Part shown: positions 7,458 to 37,708 of the stretch, piece after piece
How the letters are laid out: every line of letters starts with the position of its first letter
How positions within the stretch are numbered: the first letter of the stretch is position 1
Source: a virus
Taxonomy: Duplodnaviria; Heunggongvirae; Uroviricota; Caudoviricetes
Virus record (IMG/VR): IMGVR_UViG_2534681700_000007
Location: 1 to 38,311 of that record
DNA length: 38,311 nucleotides
Reading direction: 5' to 3' (one strand)
Program-made: the position numbers and the translations under genes
The notes under the pieces: generated by a model
Told to the model about the DNA's origin: nothing
Database searches by the model: none
What the model saw: the letters and a program-made list of their open reading frames with translations, nothing else

Positions 7458-7626
7458 CTTATCTCTCCCCTTAACGCCGGGTGGCGGAACTAACTACTGC
7501 ACTGCAAAATTTGAATCCCGCCGTCATGTTCATACGCCTCGGGCTGGCTACTTAACCCCTTACCACTGCCTGGTAACTCGAAGTATTGCCCGGCGTTCTG
7601 TGGGGCGGGGTGGGTGGTATGCTGGA

Positions 7627-7672
7627 ACTATAGGTAATGCCTAATTGATTGTCAATAGGCTATGCCTAATGT
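7627..7672 (-). promoter_or_regulatory. Leftward (PL-like) promoter/operator module downstream of racR: minus-strand -35 TTGACA (7655..7650), 17-bp spacer, -10 TATAGT (7632..7627), with GCCTAAT/ATTAGGC repeats
   Basis: Read directly from the sequence. Its reverse complement (CATTAGGCATAGCCTATTGACAAT...) is nearly identical to the rightward module at 8291-8339. Confidence 0.45.
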
Positions 7673-7765
7673 TTTGAGCGTAACCTAATAGGTGATGGCG
7701 ACAGCAGAAAGTGATGGGGGGGTTAAATAACGGAATCCAGGAGTTTTCCGTCAGACCATATAAGT

Positions 7766-8242
7766 TTAAGTTCCAGTTTTTGTGATGTTCTGGCTTTTCC
7801 GTTCAGATTCTAGAGCTTTCAGATACTTACCCACTTTCATTTCCATCGCTGCTATATAGGCGCGAACATCGTGGTCAACCCAATCTGGTTCTGTAGCATT
7901 TCCAGATAACAGGAAAGCTACAATCGCTCTTATTTCATCAGAGGCTGCTTGATAAAGGTTGTTTATATCTAAAATTTCACTTTTTGTATCTGAATTGGTG
8001 GGGGTTGGTATGGGGTATTCGTTAAGCCCCCAATGCTCTGGACCAACAACATCAGAAAAGAAACGCCATAATTCTGGAAGTTTATCTTTACTTATAGAGC
8101 CTTTCTTAATCCAGTCATAAATTGATGGTGGTTGGACTTTGAAGTGGCGTGCGACCTCCGCCTTTGATTTGACGGATCCCGATGCGATTTTTTTGTTAAT
8201 GGCCTGCTCTATCGCTCGGCCTAAGTCTTTACCACTAAGCAT
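7766..8242 (-). CDS. racR: Prophage repressor RacR, 158 aa
   Basis: ORF in the track; N-terminal helix-turn-helix region (QPPSIYDWIKKGS); recognised as RacR; divergent from ydaS. Confidence 0.85.
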   Translation of the reverse strand: MLSGKDLGRAIEQAINKKIASGSVKSKAEVARHFKVQPPSIYDWIKKGSISKDKLPELWRFFSDVVGPEHWGLNEYPIPTPTNSDTKSEILDINNLYQAASDEIRAIVAFLLSGNATEPDWVDHDVRAYIAAMEMKVGKYLKALESERKSQNITKTGT

Positions 8243-8290
8243 TGCTTAATATTCTCCTATGCGCATTACATTAGGCAATCCCTACCCTTA

Positions 8291-8339
8291 CCGCATTAGG
8301 CACAGCCTATTGACAATTGCGTTAGGCGTCGCCTAATAT
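8291..8339 (+). promoter_or_regulatory. Rightward (PR-like) promoter/operator for ydaS: -35 TTGACA at 8310..8315, perfect 15-bp palindrome TTAGGCGTCGCCTAA at 8322..8336 across the spacer and -10
   Basis: Read directly from the sequence; the palindrome position is typical of a repressor operator overlapping the promoter. Confidence 0.45.
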
Positions 8340-8365
8340 TTCTGTGTGTTTTTGGAGTTCATTCG

Positions 8366-8662
8366 ATGAAAAAAGAGAACTATTCATTCAAGCAAGCTTG
8401 TGCTGTTGTCGGTGGGCAATCAGCAATGGCTAGGCTTTTAGGTGTATCACCTCCAAGCGTAAATCAATGGATCAAAGGGGTACGTCAATTGCCTGCCGAG
8501 AGATGTCCAGCAATTGAACGTGCAACAAGAGGTGAGGTTCTGTGCGAAGAACTTCGTCCTGATATTGACTGGTCATATTTACGACGTTCGGCATGTTGTT
8601 CGCAGAATATGTCAGTGAAGCAACTAAATGACAGTAACAAATCCTCATTTGATCATACCTGA
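8366..8662 (+). CDS. ydaS: Cro-like HTH protein YdaS, 98 aa
   Basis: ORF in the track; HTH signature (QSAMARLLGVSPPSVNQWIKG); first gene of the rightward operon divergent from racR. Confidence 0.8.
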   Translation: MKKENYSFKQACAVVGGQSAMARLLGVSPPSVNQWIKGVRQLPAERCPAIERATRGEVLCEELRPDIDWSYLRRSACCSQNMSVKQLNDSNKSSFDHT

Positions 8663-8684
8663 AACATCAAGAGGCAAATGATTC

Positions 8685-11529: not shown

Positions 11530-11859
11530 ATGGCAAAAGTATTTACACAAGAAGGGCGGGAAAAAATTAAAGGGCAGGTTGTTGAACTCGTGCGCCAGAG
11601 TGGGCGCGAGACGTTACGACAACTGGAAGCTAAGACAGGTGCGACAAGATATCTGATGAACCTTCTTGCCAGAGAATTGGTTGCGAGCGGTGATGTATAC
11701 AACTCTGGTTACGGGTTATTTCCCTCAGAACAGGTTCGTAAAGACTGGCAAAACGCCCGCAAAAAACTATCAAGGGCAAAGGTGAAGAAACCGGTTGTGG
11801 TTGATCCTGACCTTATCTGGTCATTACCTGACGGAGAAATCCGTCGCCTTAGTCTTTGA
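11530..11859 (+). CDS. Hypothetical protein, 109 aa from MAKVFTQEGRE
   Basis: ORF 11515..11859; the ATG at 11530 is preceded by GGAGG; function unknown. Confidence 0.45.
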   Translation: MAKVFTQEGREKIKGQVVELVRQSGRETLRQLEAKTGATRYLMNLLARELVASGDVYNSGYGLFPSEQVRKDWQNARKKLSRAKVKKPVVVDPDLIWSLPDGEIRRLSL

Positions 11860-11894
11860 TAATAGGTTTATAATGTTGAAAAAGAGTCTAATAG

Positions 11895-11924
11895 TTGACA
11901 TTGTATGAAATATGATTGTTATAT
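11895..11924 (+). promoter_or_regulatory. Sigma70-like promoter for the NTPase gene: perfect -35 TTGACA at 11895..11900, -10-like TTATAT at about 11919..11924
   Basis: Read directly from the sequence, in the AT-rich tract upstream of the ATG at 11961. Confidence 0.4.
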
Positions 11925-12100
11925 AAAATGATTTTTTTGGATACTGTTTAAGGTAAACAAATGAAACCAGAATACTTAAGAAAAATAGAATCATTGCAAC
12001 GTGAGGTTGATGATTTCCATCCAGTGCTAAGAGCGCTTCTACCACGTTTGCCGACTGTTACACATGTTGAATATAAGCAAGGACCATCAGAAAAAGGTGC

Positions 12101-12108
12101 TGATTTTG
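12101..12108. repeat. IS1 target-site duplication, left copy (TGATTTTG)
   Basis: Identical 8-mer immediately flanks both ends of IS1 (12101..12108 and 12877..12884). Confidence 0.8.
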
Positions 12109-12163
12109 GGTGATGCTGCCAACTTACTGATTTAGTGTATGATGGTGTTTTTGAGGTGCTCCA

Positions 12164-12439
12164 GTGGCTTCTGTTTCTATCAGCTGTCCCTCCTGTTCAG
12201 CTACTGACGGGGTGGTGCGTAACGGCAAAAGCACTGCCGGACATCAGCGCTATCTCTGCTCTCACTGCCGTAAAACATGGCAACTGCAGTTCACTTACAC
12301 CGCTTCTCAACCCGGTACGCACCAGAAAATCATTGATATGGCCATGAATGGCGTTGGATGCCGGGCAACCGCCCGCATTATGGGCGTTGGCCTCAACACG
12401 ATTTTCCGCCATTTAAAAAACTCAGGCCGCAGTCGGTAA
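12164..12439 (+). CDS. insA: IS1 InsA, 91 aa
   Basis: Translation [43 protein letters not shown]... recognised as InsA; the A6C frameshift motif (AAAAAAC at 12415..12421) lies near its 3' end. Confidence 0.9.
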
Positions 12440-12861
12440 CCTCGCGCATACAGCCGGGCAGTGACGTCATCGTCTGCGCGGAAATGGACGAACAGTGGGG
12501 ATACGTCGGGGCTAAATCGCGCCAGCGCTGGCTGTTTTACGCGTATGACAGGCTCCGGAAGACGGTTGTTGCGCACGTATTCGGTGAACGCACTATGGCG
12601 ACGCTGGGGCGTCTTATGAGCCTGCTGTCACCCTTTGACGTGGTGATATGGATGACGGATGGCTGGCCGCTGTATGAATCCCGCCTGAAGGGAAAGCTGC
12701 ACGTAATCAGCAAGCGATATACGCAGCGAATTGAGCGGCATAACCTGAATCTGAGGCAGCACCTGGCACGGCTGGGACGGAAGTCGCTGTCGTTCTCAAA
12801 ATCGGTGGAGCTGCATGACAAAGTCATCGGGCATTATCTGAACATAAAACACTATCAATAA
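12358..12861 (+). CDS. insB: IS1 InsB frame, 167 aa (made as InsAB' by -1 frameshifting)
   Basis: Translation [51 protein letters not shown]... recognised as InsB. Confidence 0.85.
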
Positions 12862-12876
12862 GTTGGAGTCATTACC

Positions 12877-12884
12877 TGATTTTG
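12877..12884. repeat. IS1 target-site duplication, right copy (TGATTTTG)
   Basis: See left copy at 12101..12108. Confidence 0.8.
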
Positions 12885-15006
12885 TCATAATTAAACGAGA
12901 TGAGGCATTAGACGAGGAAATATATATTGGTGTTATTTGTAAAGTTGGAAAGATAATTCAGTCAAATAGTGAGGTTGAACGACAAATAGAAGAGTGTCAA
13001 TTATATCCACGCTTTATTTCTTCTGGCTCTAAGAACATACATTTGAATGAAATTTGGGTTATTACTAATTCATCGATCTCAAATAATGCTCAAGAAAAAA
13101 TTTACTTGAAATTCAAATCTACAAATATAAAATTTATAGAGGGTGAAAAAATATGTTCTTTAATCAGTAAATATTACCCAGAGTTTTGGGATTTCGAATC
13201 CATTAATTATGAACAATACTTAACAGATACATTGCAAACCATAAGTGATACACCTGAAAGCTCTTTTTTTGGTAGTGTTGGCATAAATAACCTTATTGAT
13301 AGATATGTAAGCAAGGAAGATCATAAAAAACGCAGACACAGGCCGTTAAAACTGTATAGTGTTGTGAGAGCCGAGAGATTTATTTTTTTAGAGGGAACCG
13401 TTGGCTCTGGGAAAAGTACTTTGCTGAAACAGTTAATTAGAAAAATAAAAGAAGAATATTCTTACGAAAAAGACTACATCCTTCCAGTATTTTGTCAATA
13501 CAAGGATGTTCTAGAAAAAAAACTTAATGTTGAAAATATAATACAAAGTGTGTTAAGTAAGTACAAAATACAACATGATGGGAATATTTTATTAATTGTT
13601 GATTCGGTGGATGAAGTAAAGGAATCACTTGAGGAAAGGCAAAACAATTTCAGGGACATTGTAGAGAAAGTATCCAGGAATGATAAAATTCGATTACTAG
13701 TTGCTTCAAGAATTATGGATTCTCTTCAGGACTATGAAGTTATCGATCAGATGTTTGCAAGATACTCGATAATACCACTTAGCACAGGTCAAATAATCGA
13801 CTTTGTAGATAAAATCTGCAATGACATTAAAATAACAAATAAACTTAAAAATGGTATAGAAAAAACACCACTATTTAAGTTCATTCCCAGGACTCCAGTG
13901 AGCGCTATTCTTCTGGCAAGAATACTCTCTGATGAGATTAAAGAATTACCATCTACAATGACAGAACTATACTCAAAATACAGTGAGATAGTATTGGGAC
14001 GATGGGATACATCTAAGGGATTATTATCGCAAACAGAATATGATGTAATAAGTAATATATTAGTAGAAATTGCGATATTTATGATGGATAACTCTCTAAA
14101 CTGCATATCAATTTCAGAAGTGCAGGACATGTTTTTAAATTATTTGGCCAAAAGAAACTTGAATGTTGATGAGGACAAACTTTTCAAAAGACTAATTTAT
14201 CGCAGTGAAGTAACAACAGTTAATGTTAGAAGTAATACGTTCTCATTTCTACACAGATCATTCATGGAGTATTTTTACGCTGAAGGACTTAGGAAGCGTG
14301 GCCTAATAGACATAAATGATAATATTTATGATATTTATTGGGCAAATAGTTATTTCTTCTATTTTGGTTTGTTAAGAGACAATGAATATCTTATTGATAA
14401 AATTAATGAACTTAAACCTAGTAACGATAAAACAAGATTTTTAAGGTTATTTTATAACGGTTCTTTTTATTTGGCTTCATATCTAACTCCGTATAAAAAA
14501 ATAACGAGGGGAGTCCTTTTATCATATATAGATGCAGGTAAATTATATGTTGATATTCTCAAGGGAAATACCGACATCCCGCTGAAGGAGTTTTCACCAG
14601 TAGCTCTTCTTTGTATTTTCACAAAGTGTTTAAGTAACAATTACGCATATGATTTTTTCAAATCTGCCTTGGAAGACTTGTCAGTTCAAATTGAACAATA
14701 TGAGGAAATTGGTGAACATATTGATTATGCACGTTTCTTCATAGCATCAACACTGAATGAGCTCGGGGATAAATCCGCATTTGATAGCTTAGTGGAAAAA
14801 AATAAATTAGGTGTTTTGATTAATTTAGGGATAACTCACGTTACAGACGACTCAGGGCTACTTAGCACTACGGTTGATAAGTACCTGAAAAAATTCAATA
14901 AAAAAGTACGAAGTAACCATGATATGTCTAATTATATATCTAAGTTATATGAGGAATCTACAGGTTCCTTACGTACAAACCTGCAAATTCAATAATAAAT
15001 AGATTG

Positions 15007-15041
15007 TCACATTGAAGGTAACGTATCGACCTTCAATGTGA
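15007..15041 (+). terminator. Strong stem-loop (13-bp stem TCACATTGAAGGT / ACCTTCAATGTGA, 9-nt loop) 12 nt after the NTPase stop; possible terminator
   Basis: Perfect inverted repeat read from the sequence; the downstream tract is only weakly T-rich, so terminator function is uncertain. Confidence 0.35.
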
Positions 15042-15363
15042 TGATTATCCTCTTGATAATATAGCTTAAGCTACTTTCGACTTTCTGAGACAAAGAGATT
15101 GCAGAATGTACCAATCATAGTGAAGCTATCGTAAATGTTCGCACGTCGCTCAAATCAGATAGTCATATTTGAGTGAACTGCTTACTCAAAATGCTGGTTG
15201 GGGCCTGACTTAATACATCTGAAGAAGTGTTGGTTATGTTTGGCTGTTGTGTTCCATTGCCAAAGAAAAAATAGATAAACTATACCCAATAGTTGTATTG
15301 AATCACTGACGAGACAGCCTCATATTTATCAGGACTGGTGTGCGTCCAATACAGGAGGTTGTC

Positions 15364-15453
15364 GTGCTGGTTCTCAAATGTGCGCTGGCTATTGCTGCTG
15401 TAATAGCAATTTATTGTCTTGCTGTTGTTCTTATGGATCGCCTTTCTGATTGA
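15364..15453 (+). CDS. Candidate small hydrophobic peptide, 29 aa (MLVLKCALAIAAVIAIYCLAVVLMDRLSD), GTG start
   Basis: AGGAGG Shine-Dalgarno 5 nt upstream of the GTG; a single predicted transmembrane helix with a charged C-terminus; not in the ORF track because of its size. Confidence 0.25.
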   Translation: MLVLKCALAIAAVIAIYCLAVVLMDRLSD

Positions 15454-15606
15454 TTTCATATTGGCGAAGTAAAGGGGGTTAAATAGTATGGCTGCGGGGG
15501 CTTGAGGCTATCTGCCTTGGGCATGAAAACCAAAGGCAGATAGAAAAAGTCCCAGTTGATATTACGCATCCGGCAAGAGGCTTAACATTAATCTGGGGCC
15601 CAATCT

Positions 15607-15819
15607 ATGCCTTACAAACGTAGGTTAGTCTCTTACGTGCTGAAAGGCAAGAAGAAGCGGGCTATGAAGCAGCAAAAGGCGATGTTAATCACCCTGATCG
15701 TCATCTGTTTAACCGTTATAGTGACGGTACTGGTAACGAGGAAAGACCTCTGCGAGGTACGAATCCGAACCGACCAGACGGAGGTCGCTGTCTTCACAGC
15801 TTACGAACTTGGGGAGTAA
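15607..15819 (+). CDS. mok: Mok (modulation of killing) reading frame, 70 aa, same frame as hok and N-terminally extended
   Basis: The 70-aa ORF contains the ...KRAMKQQKAM... junction typical of chromosomal mok/hok pairs. Confidence 0.65.
   Translation: MPYKRRLVSYVLKGKKKRAMKQQKAMLITLIVICLTVIVTVLVTRKDLCEVRIRTDQTEVAVFTAYELGE
15664..15819 (+). CDS. hok: Hok/Gef-family type I toxin, 51 aa (MKQQKAMLITLIVICLTVIVTVLVTRKDLCEVRIRTDQTEVAVFTAYELGE)
   Basis: Recognised Hok-family sequence, closest in my recollection to HokD/RelF and HokC/Gef; one transmembrane helix followed by the conserved RKDLCEV...EVAVF motif. Confidence 0.85.
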   Translation: MKQQKAMLITLIVICLTVIVTVLVTRKDLCEVRIRTDQTEVAVFTAYELGE

Positions 15820-15842: not shown

Positions 15843-17178
15843 ATAAGCGCTAACTTAAGGGTTGAACCATCTGAAGAATGCGACGCCTCGGTGCCTCGTT
15901 AAGACGATGCCTCGCGTTCTTCAATTGCGTTTTGTAGGCTGTCAGGGATACTGTCCCACGAATGGCCACCTGTAAGCTCCAGATGACCATTTTTGTTATT
16001 CTCCACAACGAGTTAGTTCTTCTTTTCGGATCCGGCACTTCTGGGGGGGAAATCCAGCGATGGCTGGATTATGTCGTCAATTAAAAATGCGGCGAGTAGA
16101 TTAGCAAATATCCACGCTTTCGCGAGTTCAGGTTCCTTTGCACGCAAAGCATCCAGGTGCAGCAAACTTTTGAGCCGCTTAAAAGCCAGTTCAATTTGCC
16201 ATCGCAGACGGTAACAATCAGCCACTTGCTCTGCTGAATATTCATCTTCCGGTAATGATGTTAGCAATAGCACATGGCCCGCTGCTTCCAGCGTTTCCGC
16301 CTGAACTACTCGTCCTTTTCGACGATTCTCGCTGAGCAGTCGGGTTTTACTGATTAATGCTTTTTCGGGAGGAAGTGATACGGCAATGAGACGTGCCGGA
16401 AAGGGAGCTCCGGCTTTTTTATTACCTGAATTGCCTATCATTACAGTGGTTTCACCGTTCTTACCGCAATCCAGCCCGCGCAGAAAACCCATCATGTCAA
16501 AGCGCATTCCTTCTGCAGTTAACCAGCGCAATCCTCGCCAGTGAACCCGGACGATATAATCAGCTTCTCCAAAAGCAAGTGAGCGGATACATTCGGGACG
16601 CGAACCGAATCCCCGGTCTGCAATGCGTATCTCGTCTGCCGTTTGCGCAAATCGGTCCAGCCGTTCAGCGTCTCTGCTGTCGGTTAGCTCAAAATCAGTG
16701 AACTGACAGGTATGAGGATCATATCCCATATGTAGTCGCCATTCAGCGCTGCCGCCCCGGGCGCACTGATTGCTGTTCCATCGACAAGACGCAATCTCTT
16801 TCCGCTTGTACAACCCGTAACTGCGGCGCGTACAGCAAGTGTTTGTGCGGCAAGTATGCCAAACCAGTCGGCGGCATTCCGCAGCCGCTTCAGGAGAGCC
16901 ACGTCAGATAATGTTGCAACGTCATGGAGCTGAGCCCATGCAGTGACTTCACGTAATGACATCCCCCCGGGGCCGTAAGCCAGCCCCAGACGTAGCAGAG
17001 TTGCAGCATCACGAATTTCGCGGCGGCGGGTTAGAGCCCCGGCATTACGTGCCGAAGTATCCAGTTCTTCGGGCTTACCAATATGGGCCAGAATTGCTGA
17101 CCAGTTATCGTGAGAGTAATTCATCGGCACGTTAAATCATATCAGGCGTAATACCACAACCCTTAAGTTAGCGCTTAT
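15843..17178 (-). mobile_element. IS186 (IS4 family), about 1336 bp
   Basis: Terminal inverted repeats CATAAGCGCTAACTTAAGGGTTG (15843...) and CAACCCTTAAGTTAGCGCTTATG (...17178); internal transposase; 12-bp direct repeat flanks. Confidence 0.85.
16013..17124 (-). pseudogene. insL: IS186 transposase (InsL-like) split by a frameshift into two overlapping ORFs (16684..17130 and 16013..16813)
   Basis: The two minus-strand ORFs together span 1112 nt from the MNYSHDNWSAILAHIGK start; one extra nucleotide would give a single 370-aa ORF. Frames switch in the GCGCCCGGGGCGGC run (about 16755..16770). C-terminal ORF carries DRGF and YRLRWQIELAFKRLK (DDE/YREK) motifs. Confidence 0.7.
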
Positions 17179-22042: not shown

Positions 22043-22500
22043 ACAGAGTAACCGCGATTATCTCCGCTCTGGTTATCTGCATCATCGTCTGCCTGTCATG
22101 GGCTGTTAATCATTACCGTGATAACGCCATTACCTACAAAGCCCAGCGCGACAAAAATGCCAGAGAACTGAAGCTGGCGAACGCGGCAATTACTGACATG
22201 CAGATGCGCCAGCGTGATGTTGCTGCACTGGATGAAAAATACACGAAGGAGTTAGCTAATGCGAAAGCTGAAAATGATGCTCTGCGTGATGATGTTGCCG
22301 CTGGTCGTCGTCGGTTGCACATCAAAGCAGTCTGTCAGTCAGTGCGTGAAGCCACCACCGCCTCCGGCGTGGATAATGCAGCCTCCCCCCGACTGGCAGA
22401 CACCGCTGAACGGGATTATTTCACCCTCAGAGAGAGGCTGATCACTATGCAAAAACAACTGGAAGGAACCCAGAAGTATATTAATGAGCAGTGCAGATAG
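22039..22500 (+). CDS. Rz: i-spanin Rz, 153 aa
   Basis: Translation from [45 protein letters not shown] is nearly identical to lambda Rz. Confidence 0.9.
22259..22441 (+). CDS. Rz1: o-spanin Rz1, 60 aa lipoprotein embedded in the +1 frame of Rz
   Basis: Lipobox VVG-C and a proline-rich mature part ([20 protein letters not shown]), as in lambda Rz1. Confidence 0.85.
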
Positions 22501-22531
22501 AGCTGCCCATATCGATGGGCAACTCATGCAA

Positions 22532-22825
22532 TTATTGTGAGCAATACACACGCGCTTCCAGCGGAGTATAAATGCCTAAAGTAATAAAACCGAGCAATCC
22601 ATTTACGAATGTTTGCTGGGTTTCTGTTTTAACAACATTTTCTGCGCCGCCACAAATTTTGGCTGCATCAACAGTTTTCTCCTGTCCAATTCCCGAAACG
22701 AAGAAGTGATGGGTGATGGTTTCCTTTGGTGTTACTGCTGTCGGTTTGTTTCCAACAGTAAACGTCTGTTGAGCACATCCTGTAATAAGCATTGCCAGAG
22801 CGGCAGAAAACAACATTTTTTTCAT
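22532..22825 (-). CDS. bor: Bor lipoprotein (serum resistance), 97 aa from MKKMLFSAALAMLITGC
   Basis: Recognised lambda Bor sequence; lipobox ITG-C; antisense to the late operon as in lambda. Confidence 0.9.
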   Translation of the reverse strand: MKKMLFSAALAMLITGCAQQTFTVGNKPTAVTPKETITHHFFVSGIGQEKTVDAAKICGGAENVVKTETQQTFVNGLLGFITLGIYTPLEARVYCSQ

Positions 22826-23187
22826 CTTATTATCCTGCATTGTTAAAAACGGCGGAATCCTATGTGACAACAATTAAACGATAGTTAAATGGATTGATGA
22901 AAATTAAAACTATATAGGTGTACGCTCAGACTATTGGAGGAAGTTGGGGACACTCAGAATCCTGTGGAATGAAATAAACCGCTCTTTCTGTCTATTACCC
23001 TTTTAGCTGCGCTGTATCGTCGCCGTATTCCCGCATGAACCATGACCGTAGCCCGACGGGGAATTCCTTCTGCGTGAGTGTGCGGGAATAATCAAAAACG
23101 ATGCACACCGGGTTTTACTGTGCTGACAGACGCAGGGTTACCCTCATAGTTGCTTTTCCGGTGCGATGGTGGAAGAAACCGGGATGT

Positions 23188-23382
23188 TTATTCATCATCA
23201 CTTTGGATTGATGTATATGCTCTCTTTTCTGACGTTAGTCTCCGACGGCAGGCTTCAATGACCCAGGCTGAGAAATTCCCAGACCCTTTTTGATCAAGAG
23301 CGATGTTAATTTGTTCAATCATTGGGTTAGGAAAGCGGATGTTGCGGGTTGTTGTTCTGCGGGTTCTGTTCTTCGTTGACAT
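23188..23382 (-). CDS. Small ribbon-helix-helix-like protein, 64 aa
   Basis: ORF in the track; basic N-terminus and the segment NIRFPNPMIEQINIALDQKGSGNFSAWVIEACRRRL suggest a CopG/Arc-type fold; function unknown. Confidence 0.4.
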   Translation of the reverse strand: MSTKNRTRRTTTRNIRFPNPMIEQINIALDQKGSGNFSAWVIEACRRRLTSEKRAYTSIQSDDE

Positions 23383-23581
23383 GAGGTTGCCCTGTATTCA
23401 GTGTCACTGATTTGTATTGTCTGAAGTTGTTTTTACGTTAAGTTGATGCAGATCAATTAATACGATACCTGCGTCATAATTGATTATTTGACGTGGTTTG
23501 ATGGCGTAGATGCACGTTGTGACATGTAGATGATAATTATTATCATTTTGCGGGTCCTTTCCGGCGATCCGACAGGTTACG

Positions 23582-23593
23582 GGGCGGCGACCT
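23582..23593 (+). other. cosN cohesive-end sequence GGGCGGCGACCT, uncleaved in the prophage; lambda right-end sequence (...CCGACAGGTTACG) lies immediately upstream and cosB downstream
   Basis: Exact match to the lambda cohesive-end 12-mer, with the flanking sequence and nu1 190 nt downstream. Confidence 0.85.
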
Positions 23594-23770
23594 CGCGGGT
23601 TTTCGCTATTTATGAAAATTTTCCGGTTTAAGGCGTTTCCGTTCTTCTTCGCCGTAACTTAATGTTTTTATTTAAAACACCACCTGAAAAGAAAGGAAAC
23701 GACAGATGCTGAAAACGGGTTTTTTGGCCTCTGTCGTTTCCTTTCTCTGTTTTTGTCCGTGGAATGAACA

Positions 23771-24290
23771 ATGGAAGTCAACAAAAAGCAGCTGGCTGAC
23801 ATTTTCGGCGCGAGCATCCGTACCATTCAGAACTGGCAGGAGCAGGGAATGCCCGTTCTGCGAGGCGGTGGCAAGGGTAATGAGGTGCTTTATGATTCTG
23901 CCGCCGTCATAAAATGGTATGCCGAAAGGGATGCTGAAATTGAGAACGAAAAGCTGCGCCGGGAAGTTGAAGAACTGCTGCAGGCCAGCGAGACAGATCT
24001 CCAGCCAGGGACTATTGAGTACGAACGCCATCGACTTACGCGTGCGCAGGCCGACGCACAGGAGCTAAAAAATGCCAGAGACTCCGCTGAAGTGGTGGAA
24101 ACCGCATTCTGTACTTTCGTGCTGTCGCGGATCGCAGGTGAAATTGCCAGTATTCTCGACGGGATCCCCCTGTCGGTGCAGCGGCGTTTTCCGGAACTGG
24201 AAAACCGACATGTTGATTTCCTGAAACGGGATATCATCAAAGCCATGAACAAAGCAGCCGCGCTGGATGAACTGATACCGGGGTTGCTGA

Positions 24291-24316
<26 letters not shown>
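23771..24316 (+). CDS. nu1: Terminase small subunit Nu1, 181 aa
   Basis: Translation MEVNKKQLADIFGASIRTIQNWQEQGMPVLRGGGKGNEVLYDSAAVIKWY... essentially identical to lambda Nu1. Confidence 0.95.
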
Positions 24317-27997
<3,681 letters not shown>

Positions 27998-28017
<20 letters not shown>

Positions 28018-29317
28018 TCTCCCGCATATTGCCAGCATGGCCTTTAATGAGCCGCTGATGCTTGAACCCGCCTATGCGCGGGTTTTCTTTTGTGCGCTAG
28101 CAGGCCAGCTTGGGATCAGCCGCCTGACAGATGCGGTGTCCGGTGACAGCCTGACTGCCCCGGAGACACCCGCGACGCTGGCGTTATCCGGTGATGATGA
28201 CGGACCACGACAGGCCCGCAGTTATCAGGTCATGAACGGCATCGCCGTGCTGCCGGTTTCCGGCACGCTGGTCAACCGGACGCGGGCGCTGCAGCCGCAT
28301 TCGGGGATGACCGGTTACAACGGCATTATCGCCCGTCTGCAACAGGCTGCCAGCGATCCGATGGTGGACGGCATTCTGCTCGATATGGACACGCCCGGCG
28401 GGATGGTGGCGGGGGCATTTGACTGCGCTGACATCATCGCCCGTGTGCGTGACATAAAACCGGTATGGGCGCTGGCCAACGACATGAACTGCAGTGCAGG
28501 TCAGCTGCTTGCCAGTGCCGCCTCCCGGCGTCTGGTCACGCAGACCGCCCGGACAGGCTCCATCGGCGTCATGATGGCTCACAGTAATTACGGCGCTGCG
28601 CTGGAGAAACAGGGCGTGGAAATCACGCTGATTTACAGCGGCAGCCATAAGGTGGATGGCAACCCCTACAGCCATCTACCGGATGATGTCCGGGAAACAC
28701 TGCAGTCCCGGATGGATGCAACTCGCCGGATGTTTGCACAGAAGGTATCGGCATATACCGGCCTGTCCGTGCAGGCTGTGCTGGATACCGAGGCTGCAGT
28801 GTACAGCGGTCAGGAGGCCATTGATGCCGGACTGGCTGATGAACTTGTTAACAGTACCGATGCGATCACCGTCATGCGTGATGCACTGGATACACGTAAA
28901 TCCCGTCTCTCAGGAGGGCGAATGACCAAAGAGACTCAATCAACAACTGTTTCAGCCACTGCTTCGCAGGCTGACGTTACTGGCGTGGTGCAAGCGACGG
29001 AGGGCAAAAACGCCAGCGCGGCGCAGCCGGATGTGAACGCGCAGATCACCGCAGCGGTTGCGGCAGAAAACAGCCGCATTATGGGGATCCTCAACTGTGA
29101 GGAGGCTCACGGACGCGAAGAACAGGCACGCGTGCTGGCCGAACCCCCCGGTATGACCGTGGAAACGGCCCGCCGCATTCTGGCAGCTGCACCACAGAGT
29201 GCACAGGCGCGCAGTGACACTGCGCTGGATCGTCTGATGCAGGGGGCACCGGCACCGCTGGCTGCAGGTAACCCGTCATCTGATGCCGTTAACGATTTGC
29301 TGAACACACCAGTGTAA
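27998..29317 (+). CDS. C: Head maturation protease / scaffold C, 439 aa, GTG start
   Basis: ORF 27839..29317 in the track, trimmed to the GTG giving MTAELRNLPHIASMAFNEPLM as in lambda gpC; overlaps the end of B. Confidence 0.9.
28712..29317 (+). CDS. nu3: Scaffolding protein Nu3, nested in frame within the 3' end of C
   Basis: In-frame internal ATG at 28712 at the position equivalent to lambda Nu3. Confidence 0.75.
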   Translation: MDATRRMFAQKVSAYTGLSVQAVLDTEAAVYSGQEAIDAGLADELVNSTDAITVMRDALDTRKSRLSGGRMTKETQSTTVSATASQADVTGVVQATEGKNASAAQPDVNAQITAAVAAENSRIMGILNCEEAHGREEQARVLAEPPGMTVETARRILAAAPQSAQARSDTALDRLMQGAPAPLAAGNPSSDAVNDLLNTPV

Positions 29318-29326
29318 GGGATGTTT

Positions 29327-29659
29327 ATGACGAGCAAAGAAACCTTTACCCATTACCAGCCGCTGGGCAACAGTGACCCGGCACATACGGCAACCGCGCC
29401 CGGCGGATTGAGTGCGAAAGCGCCTGCAATGACCCCGCTGATGCTGGACACCTCCACCCGTAAGCTGGTTGTGTGGGATGGCACCACCGACGGTGCTGCC
29501 GTTGGCATTCTGGCGGTTGCTGCTGACCAGACCAGCACCACGCTGACGTTCTACAAGTCCGGCACGTTCCGTTATGAGGATGTGCTCTGGCCGGAGGCTG
29601 CCAGCGACGAGACGAAAAAACGGACCGCGTTTGCCGGAACGGCAATCAGCATCGTTTAA
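29327..29659 (+). CDS. D: Head decoration protein D, 110 aa
   Basis: Translation [41 protein letters not shown]... matches lambda gpD. Confidence 0.95.
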
Positions 29660-29714
29660 CCTTACCCTTCATCACTAAAGGCCGCCTGTGCGGCTTTTTT
29701 TACGGGATTTTTTT

Positions 29715-30740
29715 ATGTCGATGTACACAACCGCCCAGCTGCTGGCGGCAAATGAGAAGAAATTTAAGTTTGATCCGCTGTTTCTGCGTCTCTTTTTCCG
29801 TGAGAGCTATCCCTTCACCACGGAGAAAGTCTATCTCTCACAAATTCCGGGACTGGTAAACATGGCGCTGTACGTTTCGCCGATTGTTTCCGGTGAGGTT
29901 ATCCGCTCCCGTGGCGGCTCCACCTCTGAATTTACACCGGGATATGTCAAGCCGAAGCATGAGGTGAATCCGCAGATGACCCTGCGTCGCCTGCCGGATG
30001 AAGATCCACAGAATCTGGCGGACCCGGCTTACCGCCGCCGTCGCATCATCCTGCAGAACATGCGAGACGAAGAGCTGGCCATTGCTCAGGTCGAAGAGAT
30101 GCAGGCCGTTTCTGCCGTGCTTAAGGGCAAATATACCATGACCGGTGAAGCCTTCGATCCGGTTGAAGTGGATATGGGCCGCAGTGTGGCGAACAACATC
30201 ACGCAGTCCGGCGGTACGGAGTGGAGCAAGCGTGACAAGTCCACGTATGACCCGACCGACGATATCGAAGCCTACGCGCTGAACGCCAGCGGTGTGGTGA
30301 ATATCATCGTGTTTGATCCGAAAGGCTGGGCGCTGTTCCGTTCCTTCAAAGCCGTCAAGGAGAAGCTGGATACCCGTCGCGGCTCTAATTCCGAGCTGGA
30401 GACAGCGGTAAAAGACCTGGGCGAAGCGGTGTCCTATAAGGGGATGTATGGCGATACGGCGATCGTCGTGTATTCCGGACAGTACGTGGAAAACGACGTC
30501 AAAAAGAACTTCCTGCCGGACAACACGATGGTGCTGGGGAACACTCAGGCACGCGGTCTGCGCACCTATGGCTGCATTCAGGATGCGGACGCACAGCGCG
30601 AAGGTATTAACGCCTCTGCCCGCTACCCGAAAAACTGGGTGACTACCGGCGATCCGGCGCGTGAGTTCACCATGATTCAGTCAGCACCGCTGATGCTGCT
30701 GGCTGACCCTGATGCGTTCGTGTCCGTACAACTGGCGTAA
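29715..30740 (+). CDS. E: Major capsid protein E, 341 aa
   Basis: ORF 29688..30740 trimmed to MSMYTTAQLLAANEKKFKFDPLFLRLFFRESYPF, the lambda gpE N-terminus. Confidence 0.95.
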   Translation: MSMYTTAQLLAANEKKFKFDPLFLRLFFRESYPFTTEKVYLSQIPGLVNMALYVSPIVSGEVIRSRGGSTSEFTPGYVKPKHEVNPQMTLRRLPDEDPQNLADPAYRRRRIILQNMRDEELAIAQVEEMQAVSAVLKGKYTMTGEAFDPVEVDMGRSVANNITQSGGTEWSKRDKSTYDPTDDIEAYALNASGVVNIIVFDPKGWALFRSFKAVKEKLDTRRGSNSELETAVKDLGEAVSYKGMYGDTAIVVYSGQYVENDVKKNFLPDNTMVLGNTQARGLRTYGCIQDADAQREGINASARYPKNWVTTGDPAREFTMIQSAPLMLLADPDAFVSVQLA

Positions 30741-30781
30741 TCATGGCCCTTCGGGGCCATTTTCTCTCTGTGGAGGAGTCC

Positions 30782-31177
30782 ATGACGAAAGATGAACTGA
30801 TTGCCCGTCTTCAGGTGCTGGGTGAGCAACTGAACCGTGATGTCAGCCTGACGGGGACGAAAGAAGAACTGGCACTCCGTGTGGCAGAGCTGGAAGAGGA
30901 GCTTGATGACACGGATGACGCTGCTGGTCAGGACACATCTGTCAGCCCGGAAAATGCGCTGACCGGACATGAAAATGAGGTTGTATCAGCGCAGCCGGAT
31001 ACCGTGACTGATACGGCTGATCTGGTCACGGTTGTGGCACTGGTGACGCTGCATACTGATGCACTTCACGCCACGCGGGATGAGGCTGTGGCATTTGTGC
31101 TGCCGGGAACGGCGTTCCGTGTCTCTGCCGGTGTGGCAGCTGAAATGACAGAGCGCGGCCTGGCCAGAATGCAATAA
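30782..31177 (+). CDS. FI: DNA-packaging protein FI, 131 aa
   Basis: ORF 30743..31177 trimmed to MTKDELIARLQ...; matches lambda gpFI with a variable middle segment. Confidence 0.9.
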   Translation: MTKDELIARLQVLGEQLNRDVSLTGTKEELALRVAELEEELDDTDDAAGQDTSVSPENALTGHENEVVSAQPDTVTDTADLVTVVALVTLHTDALHATRDEAVAFVLPGTAFRVSAGVAAEMTERGLARMQ

Positions 31178-31188
31178 CGGGAGGCGCT

Positions 31189-31542
31189 GTGGCTGATTTC
31201 GATAACCTGTTCGATGCTGCCATTGTTCGCGCCGATGAAACGATACGCGGGTACATGGGAACGTCAGCCACCATGACATCCGGTGAGCAGTCCGGCGCAG
31301 TAATACGTGGTGTTTTTGATGACCCTGAAAATATCAGCTATGCCGGACAGGGCGTGCGCGTTGAAGGCTCCAGCCCGTCCCTGTTTGTCCGGACTGATGA
31401 TGTGCGGCAGCTGCGGCGTGGAGACACGCTGACCATCGGTGAGGAAAACTTCTGGATAGACCGGGTTTCGCCGGATGATGGTGGAAGCTGTCATCTCTGG
31501 CTTGGGCGGGGCGTACCGCCTGCCGTTAACCGTCGCCGCTGA
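31189..31542 (+). CDS. FII: Head-tail connector FII, 117 aa
   Basis: Translation MADFDNLFDAAIVRADETIRGYMGTSATMTSGEQSGAVIRGVFDDPENISYAGQG... matches lambda gpFII. Confidence 0.95.
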   Translation: MADFDNLFDAAIVRADETIRGYMGTSATMTSGEQSGAVIRGVFDDPENISYAGQGVRVEGSSPSLFVRTDDVRQLRRGDTLTIGEENFWIDRVSPDDGGSCHLWLGRGVPPAVNRRR

Positions 31543-31553
31543 AAGGGGGATGT

Positions 31554-32132
31554 ATGGCCATAAAAGGTCTTGAGCAGGCCATTGAAAACCTCAGCCGTAT
31601 CAGCAAAACGGCGGTGCCTGGTGCCGCCGCAATGGCCATTAACCGCGTTGCTTCATCCGCGATATCGCAGTCGGCGTCACAGGTTGCCCGTGAGACAAAG
31701 GTACGCCGGAAACTGGTAAAGGAAAGGGCCAGGCTGAAAAGGGCCACGGTCAAAAATCCGCAGGCCAGAATCAAAGTTAACCGGGGGGATTTGCCCGTAA
31801 TCAAGCTGGGTAATGCGCGGGTTGTCCTTTCGCGCCGCAGGCGTCGTAAAAAGGGGCAGCGTTCATCCCTGAAAGGTGGCGGCAGCGTGCTTGTGGTGGG
31901 TAACCGTCGTATTCCCGGCGCGTTTATTCAGCAACTGAAAAATGGCCGGTGGCATGTCATGCAGCGTGTGGCCGGGAAAAACCGTTACCCCATTGATGTG
32001 GTGAAAATCCCGATGGCGGTGCCGCTGACCACGGCGTTTAAACAAAATATTGAGCGGATACGGCGTGAACGTCTTCCGAAAGAGCTGGGCTATGCGCTGC
32101 AGCATCAACTGAGGATGGTAATAAAGCGATGA
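31554..32132 (+). CDS. Z: Tail completion protein Z, 192 aa
   Basis: ORF in the track; matches lambda gpZ. Confidence 0.95.
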   Translation: MAIKGLEQAIENLSRISKTAVPGAAAMAINRVASSAISQSASQVARETKVRRKLVKERARLKRATVKNPQARIKVNRGDLPVIKLGNARVVLSRRRRRKKGQRSSLKGGGSVLVVGNRRIPGAFIQQLKNGRWHVMQRVAGKNRYPIDVVKIPMAVPLTTAFKQNIERIRRERLPKELGYALQHQLRMVIKR

Positions 32133-32524
32133 AACATACTGAACTCCGTGCAGCCGTACTGGATGCACTGGAGAAGCATGACACCGGGGCGACGTTTTTT
32201 GATGGTCGCCCCGCTGTTTTTGATGAGGCGGATTTTCCGGCAGTTGCCGTTTATCTCACCGGCGCTGAATACACGGGCGAAGAGCTGGACAGCGATACCT
32301 GGCAGGCGGAGCTGCATATCGAAGTTTTCCTGCCTGCTCAGGTGCCGGATTCAGAGCTGGATGCGTGGATGGAGTCCCGGATTTATCCGGTGATGAGCGA
32401 TATCCCGGCACTGTCAGATTTGATCACCAGTATGGTGGCCAGCGGCTATGACTACCGGCGCGACGATGATGCGGGCCTGTGGAGTTCAGCCGATCTGACT
32501 TATGTCATTACCTATGAAATGTGA
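32129..32524 (+). CDS. U: Tail terminator protein U, 131 aa
   Basis: ORF in the track; matches lambda gpU. Confidence 0.95.
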
Positions 32525-32531
32525 GGACGCT

Positions 32532-33272
32532 ATGCCTGTACCAAATCCTACAATGCCGGTGAAAGGTGCCGGGACCACCCTGTGGGTTTATAAGGGGAGC
32601 GGTGACCCTTATGCGAATCCGCTTTCAGACGTTGACTGGTCGCGTCTGGCAAAAGTTAAAGACCTGACGCCCGGCGAACTGACCGCTGAGTCCTATGACG
32701 ACAGCTATCTCGATGATGAAGATGCAGACTGGACTGCGACCGGGCAGGGGCAGAAATCTGCCGGAGATACCAGCTTCACGCTGGCGTGGATACCCGGAGA
32801 GCAGGGGCAGCAGGCGCTGCTGGCGTGGTTTAATGAAGGCGATACCCGTGCCTATAAAATCCGCTTCCCGAACGGCACGGTCGATGTGTTCCGTGGCTGG
32901 GTCAGCAGTATCGGTAAGGCGGTGACGGCGAAGGAAGTGATCACCCGCACGGTGAAAGTCACCAATGTGGGACGTCCGTCGATGGCAGAAGATCGCAGCA
33001 CGGTAACAGCGGCAACCGGCATGACCGTGACGCCTGCCAGCACCTCGGTGGTGAAAGGGCAGAGCACCACGCTGACCGTGGCCTTCCAGCCGGAGGGCGT
33101 AACCGACAAGAGCTTTCGTGCGGTGTCTGCGGATAAAACAAAAGCCACCGTGTCGGTCAGTGGTATGACCATCACCGTGAACGGCGTTGCTGCAGGCAAG
33201 GTCAACATTCCGGTTGTATCCGGTAATGGTGAGTTTGCTGCGGTTGCAGAAATTACCGTCACCGCCAGTTAA
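32532..33272 (+). CDS. V: Major tail tube protein V, 246 aa
   Basis: ORF 32502..33272 trimmed to [22 protein letters not shown], the lambda gpV N-terminus; C-terminal Ig-like domain present. Confidence 0.95.
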
Positions 33273-33287
33273 TCCGGAGAGTCAGCG

Positions 33288-33710
33288 ATGTTCCTGAAAA
33301 CCGAATCATTTGAACATAACGGTGTGACCGTCACGCTTTCTGAACTGTCAGCCCTGCAGCGCATTGAGCATCTCGCCCTGATGAAACGGCAGGCAGAACA
33401 GGCGGAGTCAGACAGCAACCGGAAGTTTACTGTGGAAGACGCCATCAGAACCGGTGCTTTTGTGGTAGCGATGTCCCTGTGGCATAACCATCCGCAGAAG
33501 ACAAAGCAGCCTTCCATGAATGAAGCCGTTAAACAGATTGAGCAGGAAGTGCTTACCACCTGGCCTACAGAGGCAATTTCTCATGCTGAAAACGTGGTGT
33601 ACCGGCTGTCCGGTATGTATGAGTTTGTGGTGAATGATGCCCCTGAACAGGCAGAGGACGCCGGGCCTGCAGAGCCTGTTTCTGCGGGAAAGTGTTCGAC
33701 GGTGAGCTGA
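33288..33710 (+). CDS. G: Tail assembly chaperone G, 140 aa
   Basis: ORF in the track; matches lambda gpG; contains the slippery heptamer near its 3' end. Confidence 0.95.
   Translation: MFLKTESFEHNGVTVTLSELSALQRIEHLALMKRQAEQAESDSNRKFTVEDAIRTGAFVVAMSLWHNHPQKTKQPSMNEAVKQIEQEVLTTWPTEAISHAENVVYRLSGMYEFVVNDAPEQAEDAGPAEPVSAGKCSTVS
33686..33692 (+). other. Programmed -1 ribosomal frameshift site G GGA AAG producing the G-T fusion
   Basis: The heptamer is in the G frame (GGA at 33687, AAG at 33690); the T frame (33692..34126) lies in the -1 frame and has no independent start context. Confidence 0.85.
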
Positions 33711-34126
33711 CTTTTGCCCTGAAACTGGCGCGCGAGATGGGGCGACCCGACTGGCGTGCCATGCTTGCCGGGATGTCATCCACGGAGTATGCCGACTGGC
33801 ACCGCTTTTACAGTACCCATTATTTTCATGATGTTCTGCTGGATATGCACTTTTCCGGGCTGACGTACACCGTGCTCAGCCTGTTTTTCAGCGATCCGGA
33901 TATGCATCCGCTGGATTTCAGTCTGCTGAACCGGCGTGAGGCTGACGAAGAGCCTGAAGATGATGTGCTGATGCAGAAAGCGGCAGGGCTTGCCGGAGGC
34001 GTTCGTTTTGGCCCGGACGGGAATGAAGTTATCCCCGCTTCCCCGGATGTGGCGGACATGACGGAGGATGATGTAATGCTGATGACAGTATCAGAAGGGA
34101 TCGCAGGAGGAGTCCGGTATGGCTGA
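33692..34126 (+). CDS. T: Tail assembly protein T reading frame, expressed only as the G-T fusion
   Basis: ORF 33692..34126 in the -1 frame relative to G, overlapping the G 3' end; matches lambda gpT. Confidence 0.85.
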   Translation: MFDGELTFALKLAREMGRPDWRAMLAGMSSTEYADWHRFYSTHYFHDVLLDMHFSGLTYTVLSLFFSDPDMHPLDFSLLNRREADEEPEDDVLMQKAAGLAGGVRFGPDGNEVIPASPDVADMTEDDVMLMTVSEGIAGGVRYG

Positions 34127-36680: not shown

Positions 36681-37006
36681 AAACCTTCCGCTGGAAAGTG
36701 AAACCCGGTATGGATGTGGCTTCGGCCCCTTCTGTAAGAAAGGTGCGCTTTGGTGATGGCTATTCCCAGCGAGCGCCTGCCGGGCTGAATGCCAACCTGA
36801 AAACGTACAGCGTGACGCTTTCTGTCCCCCGTGAGGAGGCCACGGTACTGGAGTCGTTTCTGGAAGAGCACGGGGGCTGGAAAGCCTTTCTGTGGACACC
36901 GCCTTATGAGTGGCGGCAGATAAAGGTGACCTGCGCAAAATGGTCGTCGCGGGTCAGTATGCTGCGTGTTGAGTTCAGCGCAGAGTTTGAACAGGTGGTG
37001 AACTGA
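36677..37006 (+). CDS. M: Tail tip protein M, 109 aa
   Basis: ORF in the track; matches lambda gpM. Confidence 0.95.
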   Translation: MKTFRWKVKPGMDVASAPSVRKVRFGDGYSQRAPAGLNANLKTYSVTLSVPREEATVLESFLEEHGGWKAFLWTPPYEWRQIKVTCAKWSSRVSMLRVEFSAEFEQVVN

Positions 37007-37704: not shown

Positions 37705-37708
37705 TCCC

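Follow-up and report, generated by a model that had tools for sequence, protein, structure and literature searches.

Organization of the locus

The window analyzed here is a stretch of 38,311 nucleotides from a Caudoviricetes record (IMG/VR IMGVR_UViG_2534681700_000007). At positions 11841..15221, it contains an AT-rich cargo cassette of a Rac-type prophage, with ends set by alignment with a sister Rac prophage. A strongly AT-rich island had been described here from the sequence, and a composition count agrees, giving a GC fraction of 0.29-0.34 across 13001-15000 versus ~0.50 in the flanks. The cassette lies between a DUF977 (ydaW-like) gene and hokD and, after subtraction of an IS1 element and its target-site duplication, measures 2605 bp at ~32% GC. 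The sister Rac prophage, from E. coli EcE.CRE.COL (L009), is collinear with the window to position 11840 and again from 15222, and carries DUF262 and TPR genes between the same boundaries. The finding of different cargo at identical boundaries upholds the earlier view of a prophage accessory slot; the host element is a Rac-type lambdoid prophage of E. coli, and the region, its variable cargo cassette, carries one gene.

This gene, on the forward strand like all coding features below, is split by IS1 at 12109..12876. The element is 768 bp long and has imperfect terminal inverted repeats, apparently intact insA (12164..12439) and insB' (12358..12861), and, at IS1 position 307, an A6C frameshift motif. 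Thousands of E. coli records contain annotated IS1A/IS1B copies to which it is 98-99% identical. The sequence reads as a target-site duplication of 8 bp, TGATTTTG, with its left copy at 12101..12108 and its right copy at 12877..12884; because the final base of IS1 is also C, the duplication can be read as 9 bp with the preceding C. Length, inverted repeats, insA/insB' with the A6C site, and an 8-9 bp duplication thus all match IS1, and the insertion after codon 49 with its flanking duplication is as first described.

The 5' fragment of the gene (11961..12108) comprises codons 1-49 plus one base and includes D48. As present in the window, it forms a 50-aa ORF (11961..12113) that ends at a TGA inside the left end of IS1. 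The 3' fragment (12885..14995) holds codons 50-752 and the stop codon. A mechanical ORF reading also starts at a TTG at 12863, within the right end of IS1, and enters the 3' fragment in frame to give a 710-aa product beginning MESLP-DFVIIK. To restore the gene, 12109..12884 was deleted and 11961..12108 was joined to 12885..14995. The resulting ORF of 2259 nt has 752 codons plus a stop, reads ...EKGADF-VIIKRDE... across the junction, and contains no further stop or frameshift, as had been anticipated for a single ORF of ~752 codons. With IS1 between codons 49 and 50, no continuous reading frame in the window joins the gene to its own start and upstream region. The insertion lies one codon past the catalytic D48, so we call this copy a pseudogene, presumably non-functional; since IS1 cuts off the remainder of the gene from its promoter, its start codon, and the codons for residues 1-49, function is almost certainly lost. 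The proposed inactivation is therefore secure as a physical interruption of the gene, from which we infer the loss of function.

Signals flanking the gene are less clear-cut. The preliminary description had placed a perfect TTGACA −35 element upstream, and the hexamer is indeed present at 11896..11901 as a candidate −35, but at a spacing of 16-18 bp downstream, a promoter consensus scan found no hexamer acceptable as a −10. A perfect 13-bp inverted repeat with a 9-nt loop, TCACATTGAAGGT ... ACCTTCAATGTGA, occupies 15007..15041 (+), 11 nt past the stop codon. It may form a transcript-end hairpin; no T-run follows it, and it was not called in a terminator scan.

Domain architecture of the restored protein

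The restored protein was modeled with AlphaFold2 (pLDDT 83.3, pTM 0.73) and searched against domain databases. Its N-terminal domain of ~170 residues, previously left as a domain of unknown type, is identified as a PD-(D/E)xK (Mrr-like) DNase effector containing D48; by sequence only, the Mrr_cat match falls below the Pfam cutoff. The part of this domain encoded beyond IS1 (residues 50-170, 12885..13246) includes the invariant residues K69, E105, and W107. The central region matches Pfam NACHT (PF05729; 36.7 bits, cutoff 26.7) over residues 214-331, encoded at 13376..13729. Walker A reads GTVGSGKS (residues 220-227, 13394..13417) and Walker B reads LLIVDSVDE, with the signature DSVDE spanning D289-E293 (13601..13615), in agreement with the P-loop NTPase originally recognized.

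The same description had assigned the last ~400 residues to a single C-terminal region. [quoted passage not shown] The NCH1 match scores 133 bits (E 1.2e-38), above the cutoff, and aligns to positions 1-168 of the 173-position profile; the AlphaFold2 model shows this region as entirely helical.

NACHT proteins are distinguished by the Walker B signature D[GAS]hDE (10.1101/2022.07.19.500537). The restored protein contains this signature together with Walker A GxxxxGK[ST] and H506/S508. Among 43 homologues with identity down to 31%, D48, K69, the Walker A lysine K226, D289, D292, E293, and H506 are invariant, as are G223 and G225 and, in the N-terminal domain, E15, P21, G41, E44, and G46. Structural comparison ranks NLRP3 and NOD2 as the best matches, which indicates a NACHT-type rather than another STAND-type fold. 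A sequence search of the PDB returned no solved relative at E ≤ 0.01. Scans with PADLOC-DB 2.0 and NCBIfam gave generic P-loop matches and no specific family, the best PADLOC-DB 2.0 match being a generic P-loop hit to HerA at 23.6 bits. The assignment therefore rests on Pfam, identity to a published accession, and structure. Housekeeping ATPases were considered and rejected, as such matches in Pfam and NCBIfam were all short Walker-A alignments far below cutoff.

Relation to bNACHT25 and intact alleles

In DNA sequence, the restored gene matches with 100% identity the one encoding WP_033801850.1, a 'NACHT domain-containing protein' of E. coli CFSAN061771. Identical intact DNA also occurs in ten other complete genomes, in line with the expectation that intact homologues would be found elsewhere. 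For the 3' fragment considered separately, 100% identity to the corresponding part of WP_033801850.1 is seen in 9 complete E. coli genomes. The gene order in CFSAN061771 is ydaU-ydaV-DUF1627-DUF977-NACHT-hokD, within a Rac prophage adjoining ttcA/intR.

At full length, the restored protein is 98.8% identical (743/752 residues, same length) to WP_001702659.1, which is bNACHT25 of E. coli ECOR11 (Kibby et al., 10.1101/2022.07.19.500537; Conte et al. 2025, PMC12169576). As the supplementary tables of PMC12169576 give partial protein sequences, the full bNACHT25 sequence was taken from the RefSeq record WP_001702659.1. Residues 3-97 of the restored protein match the published tagged bNACHT25 fragment exactly. 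The two proteins differ by nine substitutions (I109V, R235K, V265I, N315S, I318V, I447M, S499T, T590A, and K609H), two of which, T590A and K609H, fall in NCH1; these changes could alter specificity. At the DNA level, 50 differences separate the genes; they affect 48 codons, of which 39 are changed synonymously. WP_001702659.1 is annotated in the same Rac slot in strain LC-1302-2020. By near-identity to bNACHT25 and the published placement of bNACHT25/32-type proteins in clade 6 (PMC12169576), the window gene is assigned to NACHT clade 6 and not to Avs.

Our own results comprise the insertion, the restored ORF, the identity to intact alleles, the near-identity to bNACHT25, the domains, and the slot; what is said on defense, on the need for D48, and on dependence on DnaJ comes from the literature on the 98.8%-identical protein. 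bNACHT25 is an experimentally characterized anti-phage protein of bacteria, related to the NLR immune sensors of humans. Its N-terminal domain is a PD-(D/E)xK DNase, and the D48A mutation there eliminates defense (PMC12169576); NACHT forms the central module, and NCH1 the C-terminal domain. It defends against T2, T4, and MS2 and needs host DnaJ; published work further reports that the MS2 coat protein is sufficient to activate bNACHT25 but does not bind it. The wild-type protein is not toxic on expression, whereas hyperactive alleles are (10.1101/2022.07.19.500537).

We hold with high confidence that the window contains an IS1-broken allele of anti-phage bNACHT25 in a Rac cargo cassette, the intact form of which acts as published. 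Under this reading, the intact protein would rest as an inactive monomer, and infection by T2, T4, or MS2-like RNA phages would be sensed indirectly, in a process for which DnaJ, a chaperone of the host, is needed. Once the NACHT NTPase module had switched on, the N-terminal DNase would degrade cellular DNA, so that the infected cell would stop growing and making phage. The earlier proposal, an anti-phage protein of the STAND superfamily laid out as effector, NTPase, and sensor, is thus matched by PD-(D/E)xK, NACHT, and NCH1 domains and by 98.8% identity to bNACHT25. Because a near-identical bNACHT25 has been published, the intact homologue, named at the outset as the real object of study, has already been studied; the bNACHT25-type gene is already characterized, and the window copy is real but ordinary.

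Distribution of intact and disrupted alleles

The same IS1-broken allele is present in at least six draft assemblies, a pattern that suggests a single clonal lineage; the strain of GCA_000355275.2 is among the carriers. The left IS1/gene junction, searched for as an exact string in one genome per species, was not found, so this allele is not in a species-representative genome, and none of the complete E. coli genomes in the collection has IS1 at this site. The gene occurs in 18 complete E. coli genomes and looks intact in 12 and disrupted in six. The disruptions are four +/−1 frameshifts, all within A7/A8/T7 runs, an IS3-associated 5' truncation (GPEC1446), and an IS1X2-associated deletion (FLI21). 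The frameshifted genomes are M160133, LD67-1, FDAARGOS_1249, and 19KM1766N, with the changes at gene nt 646, 779, and 1758. The exact intact protein is found on 567 contigs. No match to the gene was returned by tblastn against 50,697 phage records; it is therefore absent from the sequenced free phages of that collection. A literature search retrieved no paper naming the Rac prophage together with NACHT. A modest point for specialists is that bNACHT25 and its alleles occupy a defined, exchangeable Rac-type slot extending from the DUF977 gene to hokD.

Alternative interpretations

The IS1 insertion itself might have been selected, if the gene is costly or auto-toxic and its loss repeatedly favored, for example through self-triggering by chaperone stress or by capsid that the prophage itself makes when induced. 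Disruption in 6/18 complete genomes in addition to the window locus, persistence of the IS1 allele in at least six drafts, and the toxicity of hyperactive bNACHT25 alleles (10.1101/2022.07.19.500537) are compatible with such a cost. We nevertheless regard it as unlikely, as the A7/A8/T7-run frameshifts may be long-read assembly errors, wild-type bNACHT25 expression is not toxic (same reference), and the gene remains intact in 12/18 genomes with its exact protein on those 567 contigs. A further consideration is base composition. IS1 prefers AT-rich targets, and a gene of 31.9% GC in a window whose remainder is 50.6% GC is therefore likely a neutral target. The broader idea that repeated loss by IS1, IS3, IS1X2, and possibly homopolymer frameshifts reflects a real conflict, in which a DnaJ-guarding NLR is set off by prophage capsid synthesis or host proteotoxic stress and the A7/A8 tracts even serve as on/off switches, is a long shot. 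That about one third of loci look disrupted still offers a starting point for work on the cost of a guard-type sensor.

The second question is whether the broken allele yields any product. Read-out transcription from IS1 and initiation at TTG 12863 could produce the 710-aa protein as an altered, weakened, or dominant-negative bNACHT25 in which the Asp48 equivalent is kept through the duplication. The reading frame at 12863..14995 stays open and in phase with the gene, the codons GAT TTT are re-formed by the duplication, and gene callers have annotated the 710-aa product in draft genomes. Since the in-frame TTG ORF re-creates Asp-Phe in this way, complete loss of product is something that we infer. 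A residual product is very improbable all the same: no Shine-Dalgarno-like sequence precedes TTG 12863, the native promoter region lies 0.9 kb upstream with IS1 in between, and ORF lists of this kind are purely mechanical. The 710-aa product would also lack residues 1-47 and hence the invariant E15, P21, G41, E44, and G46, along with two modeled elements of the nuclease core, a helix (15-29) and a strand (33-38). Turning from the presumed pseudogene to its family, the likeness to Avs drawn in the preliminary description captures the general STAND defense layout and fails at the level of the family. In Avs4-like proteins, a nuclease is combined with a STAND NTPase and a TPR sensor, with direct binding of a phage protein by the sensor. 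A tripartite layout with an N-terminal nuclease, a prophage location, and weak nSTAND matches in Pfam (nSTAND_NTPase5 at 25.2 bits versus a cutoff of 34; nSTAND3 and nSTAND1 also below cutoff) would fit an Avs/AVAST-type protein. Against these stand the above-cutoff NACHT and NCH1 matches, the NACHT-specific D[GAS]hDE Walker B, NLRP3 and NOD2 as best structural matches, no match to any Avs model in PADLOC-DB 2.0, and no TPR match in Pfam at E ≤ 1. Published bNACHT25 sensing is moreover DnaJ-dependent, and the activating MS2 coat protein is not bound. An Avs identity thus retains practically no probability.

Comparison with known systems

The locus is best annotated as an IS1-disrupted pseudogene of a bNACHT25-type, NLR-related defense protein instead of a hypothetical STAND protein, a change of little import beyond labeling. 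Its closest counterpart is the WP_033801850.1 gene of E. coli CFSAN061771, M8, MS1718, and others, which shares the DNA, protein, and prophage context of the restored ORF and, unlike the window copy, is intact without IS1. bNACHT25 itself has the PD-(D/E)xK-NACHT-NCH1 architecture, D48, Walker A/B, H506/S508, and Rac slot in common with the window gene, which differs in being split by IS1 and presumably inactive. bNACHT32 (WP_057688292, E. coli RU1 MA4), reported to be 81% identical to bNACHT25, belongs to the same clade 6 with the same architecture and a published requirement for D48, but several positions of its published N-terminal fragment do not match the window protein.

More distant systems share the logic rather than the family. 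Avs/AVAST proteins such as Avs4 follow the same effector-STAND NTPase-sensor scheme as the window protein, and in both the nuclease output is of the abortive-infection type and mobile elements are frequent carriers; the window protein belongs to a different NTPase clade and has no TPR sensor and no Avs HMM match. Avs binds a conserved phage protein directly, whereas the published sensing by bNACHT25 is indirect and DnaJ-dependent. The eukaryotic NACHT NLRs NLRP3, NOD2, and NLRC4 have only 13-15% sequence identity to the window protein, which lacks their LRRs and PYD/CARD and instead has a fused DNase as its effector and the helical NCH1 domain at its C-terminus.

The interrupted gene and its restoration

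GC content falls from ~0.50 to 0.29-0.34 across window positions 13001-15000, where a single long gene occupies most of an AT-rich cassette. The gene is split by a 768-bp IS1 (12109..12876) with imperfect terminal inverted repeats, an A6C frameshift motif, insA (12164..12439) and insB' (12358..12861); thousands of E. coli records contain annotated IS1A/IS1B copies with 98-99% identity to the element. Direct reading placed the target duplication TGATTTTG on both sides (12101-12108 and 12877-12884). Joining 11961..12108 to 12885..14995 yielded 2259 nt (752 codons and a stop) free of further stops or frameshifts, and the junction reads EKGADF-VIIKRDE. The restored gene has 31.9% GC versus 50.6% in the remainder of the window. 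IS1 sits at the codon 49/50 boundary, one residue past the catalytic D48. Since the element, its 8-bp duplication and clean restoration of the ORF were all confirmed, the structural statements of the preliminary description, including strong AT-richness and a single ~752-codon ORF, are correct with the exception of the promoter. The TTGACA described as a perfect -35 is present at 11896-11901, but a consensus scan found no usable -10 hexamer 16-18 bp from it.

The restored gene encodes a near-identical copy of bNACHT25

Intact homologues, proposed earlier as the real object of study, were recovered. Of 5,426 complete E. coli genomes, 18 matched the IS1-free 3' part in a megablast search; the gene is chromosomal in all of them and annotated as a NACHT domain-containing protein. 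The CFSAN061771 gene (WP_033801850.1) equals the restored ORF at every nucleotide, and the exact intact protein is recorded on 567 contigs. In LC-1302-2020, the same slot is occupied by WP_001702659.1, published as the anti-phage protein bNACHT25 from E. coli ECOR11 (PMC12169576; 10.1101/2022.07.19.500537). The restored protein is 98.8% identical to it, with 9 substitutions in 752 residues; the genes differ at 50 DNA positions, with 39 of 48 differing codons synonymous. Over residues 3-97, the protein agrees with the tagged bNACHT25 N-terminal fragment given in the strain table of PMC12169576; the related bNACHT32 differs from the window protein at several positions there.

Three relevant Pfam matches were obtained for the restored protein: NCH1 at residues 576-741 (133 bits), NACHT at residues 214-331 (36.7 bits, cutoff 26.7) and a sub-threshold Mrr_cat restriction-endonuclease domain at residues 23-143 (17 bits versus a cutoff of 21). 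PADLOC 2.0 and NCBIfam scans returned generic P-loop matches only. Both nucleotide-binding motifs described previously were found: Walker A as GTVGSGKS (residues 220-227) and Walker B as LLIVDSVDE, which contains the D[GAS]hDE signature that sets NACHT apart from other STAND NTPases (10.1101/2022.07.19.500537). The reading of the gene as a STAND defence gene was right in substance; membership of the Avs family is rejected on the Walker B signature and the above-cutoff NACHT match.

Homology searching gathered 175 full-length relatives (~750-790 aa, identity down to ~32%) from Escherichia, Citrobacter, Providencia, Serratia, Enterobacter, Aeromonas, Pseudomonas, Marinobacter and Stenotrophomonas. 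Across the 43 relatives that were aligned, E15, P21, G41, E44, G46, D48, F49, K69, E105 and W107 are invariant in the N-terminal domain; the NACHT module likewise has invariant Walker A K226, D289, D292, E293 and H506. Conservation is highest in the N-terminal domain and the helical/winged-helix part and lower in the NBD and NCH1 regions. An AlphaFold2 model built from the relatives' alignment (mean pLDDT 83.3, pTM 0.73) predicts the N-terminal order helix-strand-strand-strand-helix-strand, with D48 immediately preceding the second strand and K69 closing the third.

Disrupted alleles

In the window, the 5' part of the gene is cut down to a 50-aa ORF. A TTG in the right end of IS1 opens a 710-aa ORF (12863..14995, MESLP-DFVIIK...) through the 3' part; by accident, the target duplication gives this ORF back the Asp-Phe of the active-site motif. 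We infer that the window copy is a pseudogene because this ORF has no ribosome-binding sequence and is missing residues 1-47, among them five invariant positions of the alignment and two core secondary-structure elements of the AlphaFold2 model. Gene callers annotate the same ORF in draft genomes as a 710-aa NACHT protein, masking the disruption. Draft assembly GCA_000355275.2 carries the allele at 100% identity across 8.1 kb, both junctions included, and five more assemblies have contigs that stop within IS1 and are identical from there on; the insertion is therefore inherited within a lineage. The allele was not found in the complete-genome set or among species-representative genomes.

The gene also looks disrupted in 6 of the 18 complete genomes. 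Two copies are truncated: in GPEC1446 (locus L002, 4808..6003), IS3 stands in place of DUF977 and the first 85 nt of the gene, and in FLI21 (locus L006, 3248..4063), an IS1X2-linked deletion runs from recE-proximal genes through gene nt 1099. The other four carry +/-1 frameshifts, all inside T7, A8 or A7 runs (gene nt 646, 779, 779 and 1758 in loci L004, L005, L007 and L008, respectively); homopolymers of at least 7 bases occur five times in the gene. These frameshifts may be long-read homopolymer errors or slipped-strand inactivation, and the A8-to-A7 change at nt 779 occurs twice, in two different allele backgrounds. IS1 favours AT-rich DNA as a target. Because the frameshifts may be read errors and IS1 has this preference, a selective cost of the gene is no more than possible.

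Prophage context

The left part of this Rac-type prophage opens, at the start of the window, with intR, followed by xisR, recET, kilR, sieB, racR/ydaS, ydaT, ydaU, ydaV, DUF1627 and DUF977. To the right of the cassette lie hokD, DUF1367/1364/1133 and lysis genes, followed by lambda-like terminase, portal, protease, major head, major tail and tape-measure genes. Collinearity with the sister Rac prophage of EcE.CRE.COL extends as far as window 11840 and resumes at 15222; the interval (12197..15456 of its locus L009) has a DUF262-domain gene and a TPR gene in place of the NACHT gene. Because other genes lie between the same collinear boundaries, 11841..15221 is, judged by sequence comparison, an exchangeable cargo slot, and the cargo exchanged between DUF977 and hokD is probably defence-related. 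Genomes that carry the NACHT gene have the 3' end of DUF977 replaced. A tblastn search of 50,697 phage records found none that encodes the NACHT protein.

Adjoining the cassette on the right is the Hok/Gef toxin gene hokD (15664..15819, + strand; Pfam HOK_GEF, 73 bits). An IS421 (IS4-like; 15843..17178, - strand; target duplication GGGAGAAATCCC) lies 24 bp downstream, as in the EcE.CRE.COL prophage, and might alter the 3' fold-back region of hok mRNA. In the window, a C5-to-C4 deletion near 16754 splits its transposase into ORFs 16013..16813 and 16684..17130. The immunity region (7620..8678; racR 7766..8242, - strand; ydaS 8366..8662) matches EcE.CRE.COL and is wholly unlike CFSAN061771, which has another HTH pair, a mosaic repressor-module exchange between Rac prophages that are otherwise 99% identical. 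Beyond the lysis genes on the right, the match to both prophages ends, and 22429..38311 is a GC-rich (55-62%) lambda-like head/tail module (small and large terminase subunits, portal, protease/scaffold, major head, major tail, tape measure, minor tail) in which no trkG was seen. Because it carries this module, the prophage may be structurally more complete than K-12 Rac.

Relation to characterised NACHT proteins

Together, these findings identify an allele, which we infer to be IS1-inactivated, of a published and experimentally characterised defence protein; the gene is already known. bNACHT25 and bNACHT32, both of NACHT clade 6, carry an N-terminal PD-(D/E)xK DNase followed by the NACHT module and NCH1. 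They defend E. coli from DNA phages and MS2-like RNA phages, and the D48A mutation eliminates this defence together with the DNA degradation induced by infection (PMC12169576). MS2 coat protein suffices to activate bNACHT25 yet does not bind it, the host chaperone DnaJ is required for defence against MS2, T2 and T4, and the bNACHT25 authors propose a guard-type mechanism. Wild-type bNACHT25 is non-toxic, and mutation of the winged-helix His or S508 hyperactivates it, with D48-dependent toxicity (10.1101/2022.07.19.500537). In the window protein, D48, H506 and S508 occupy the same positions as in bNACHT25.
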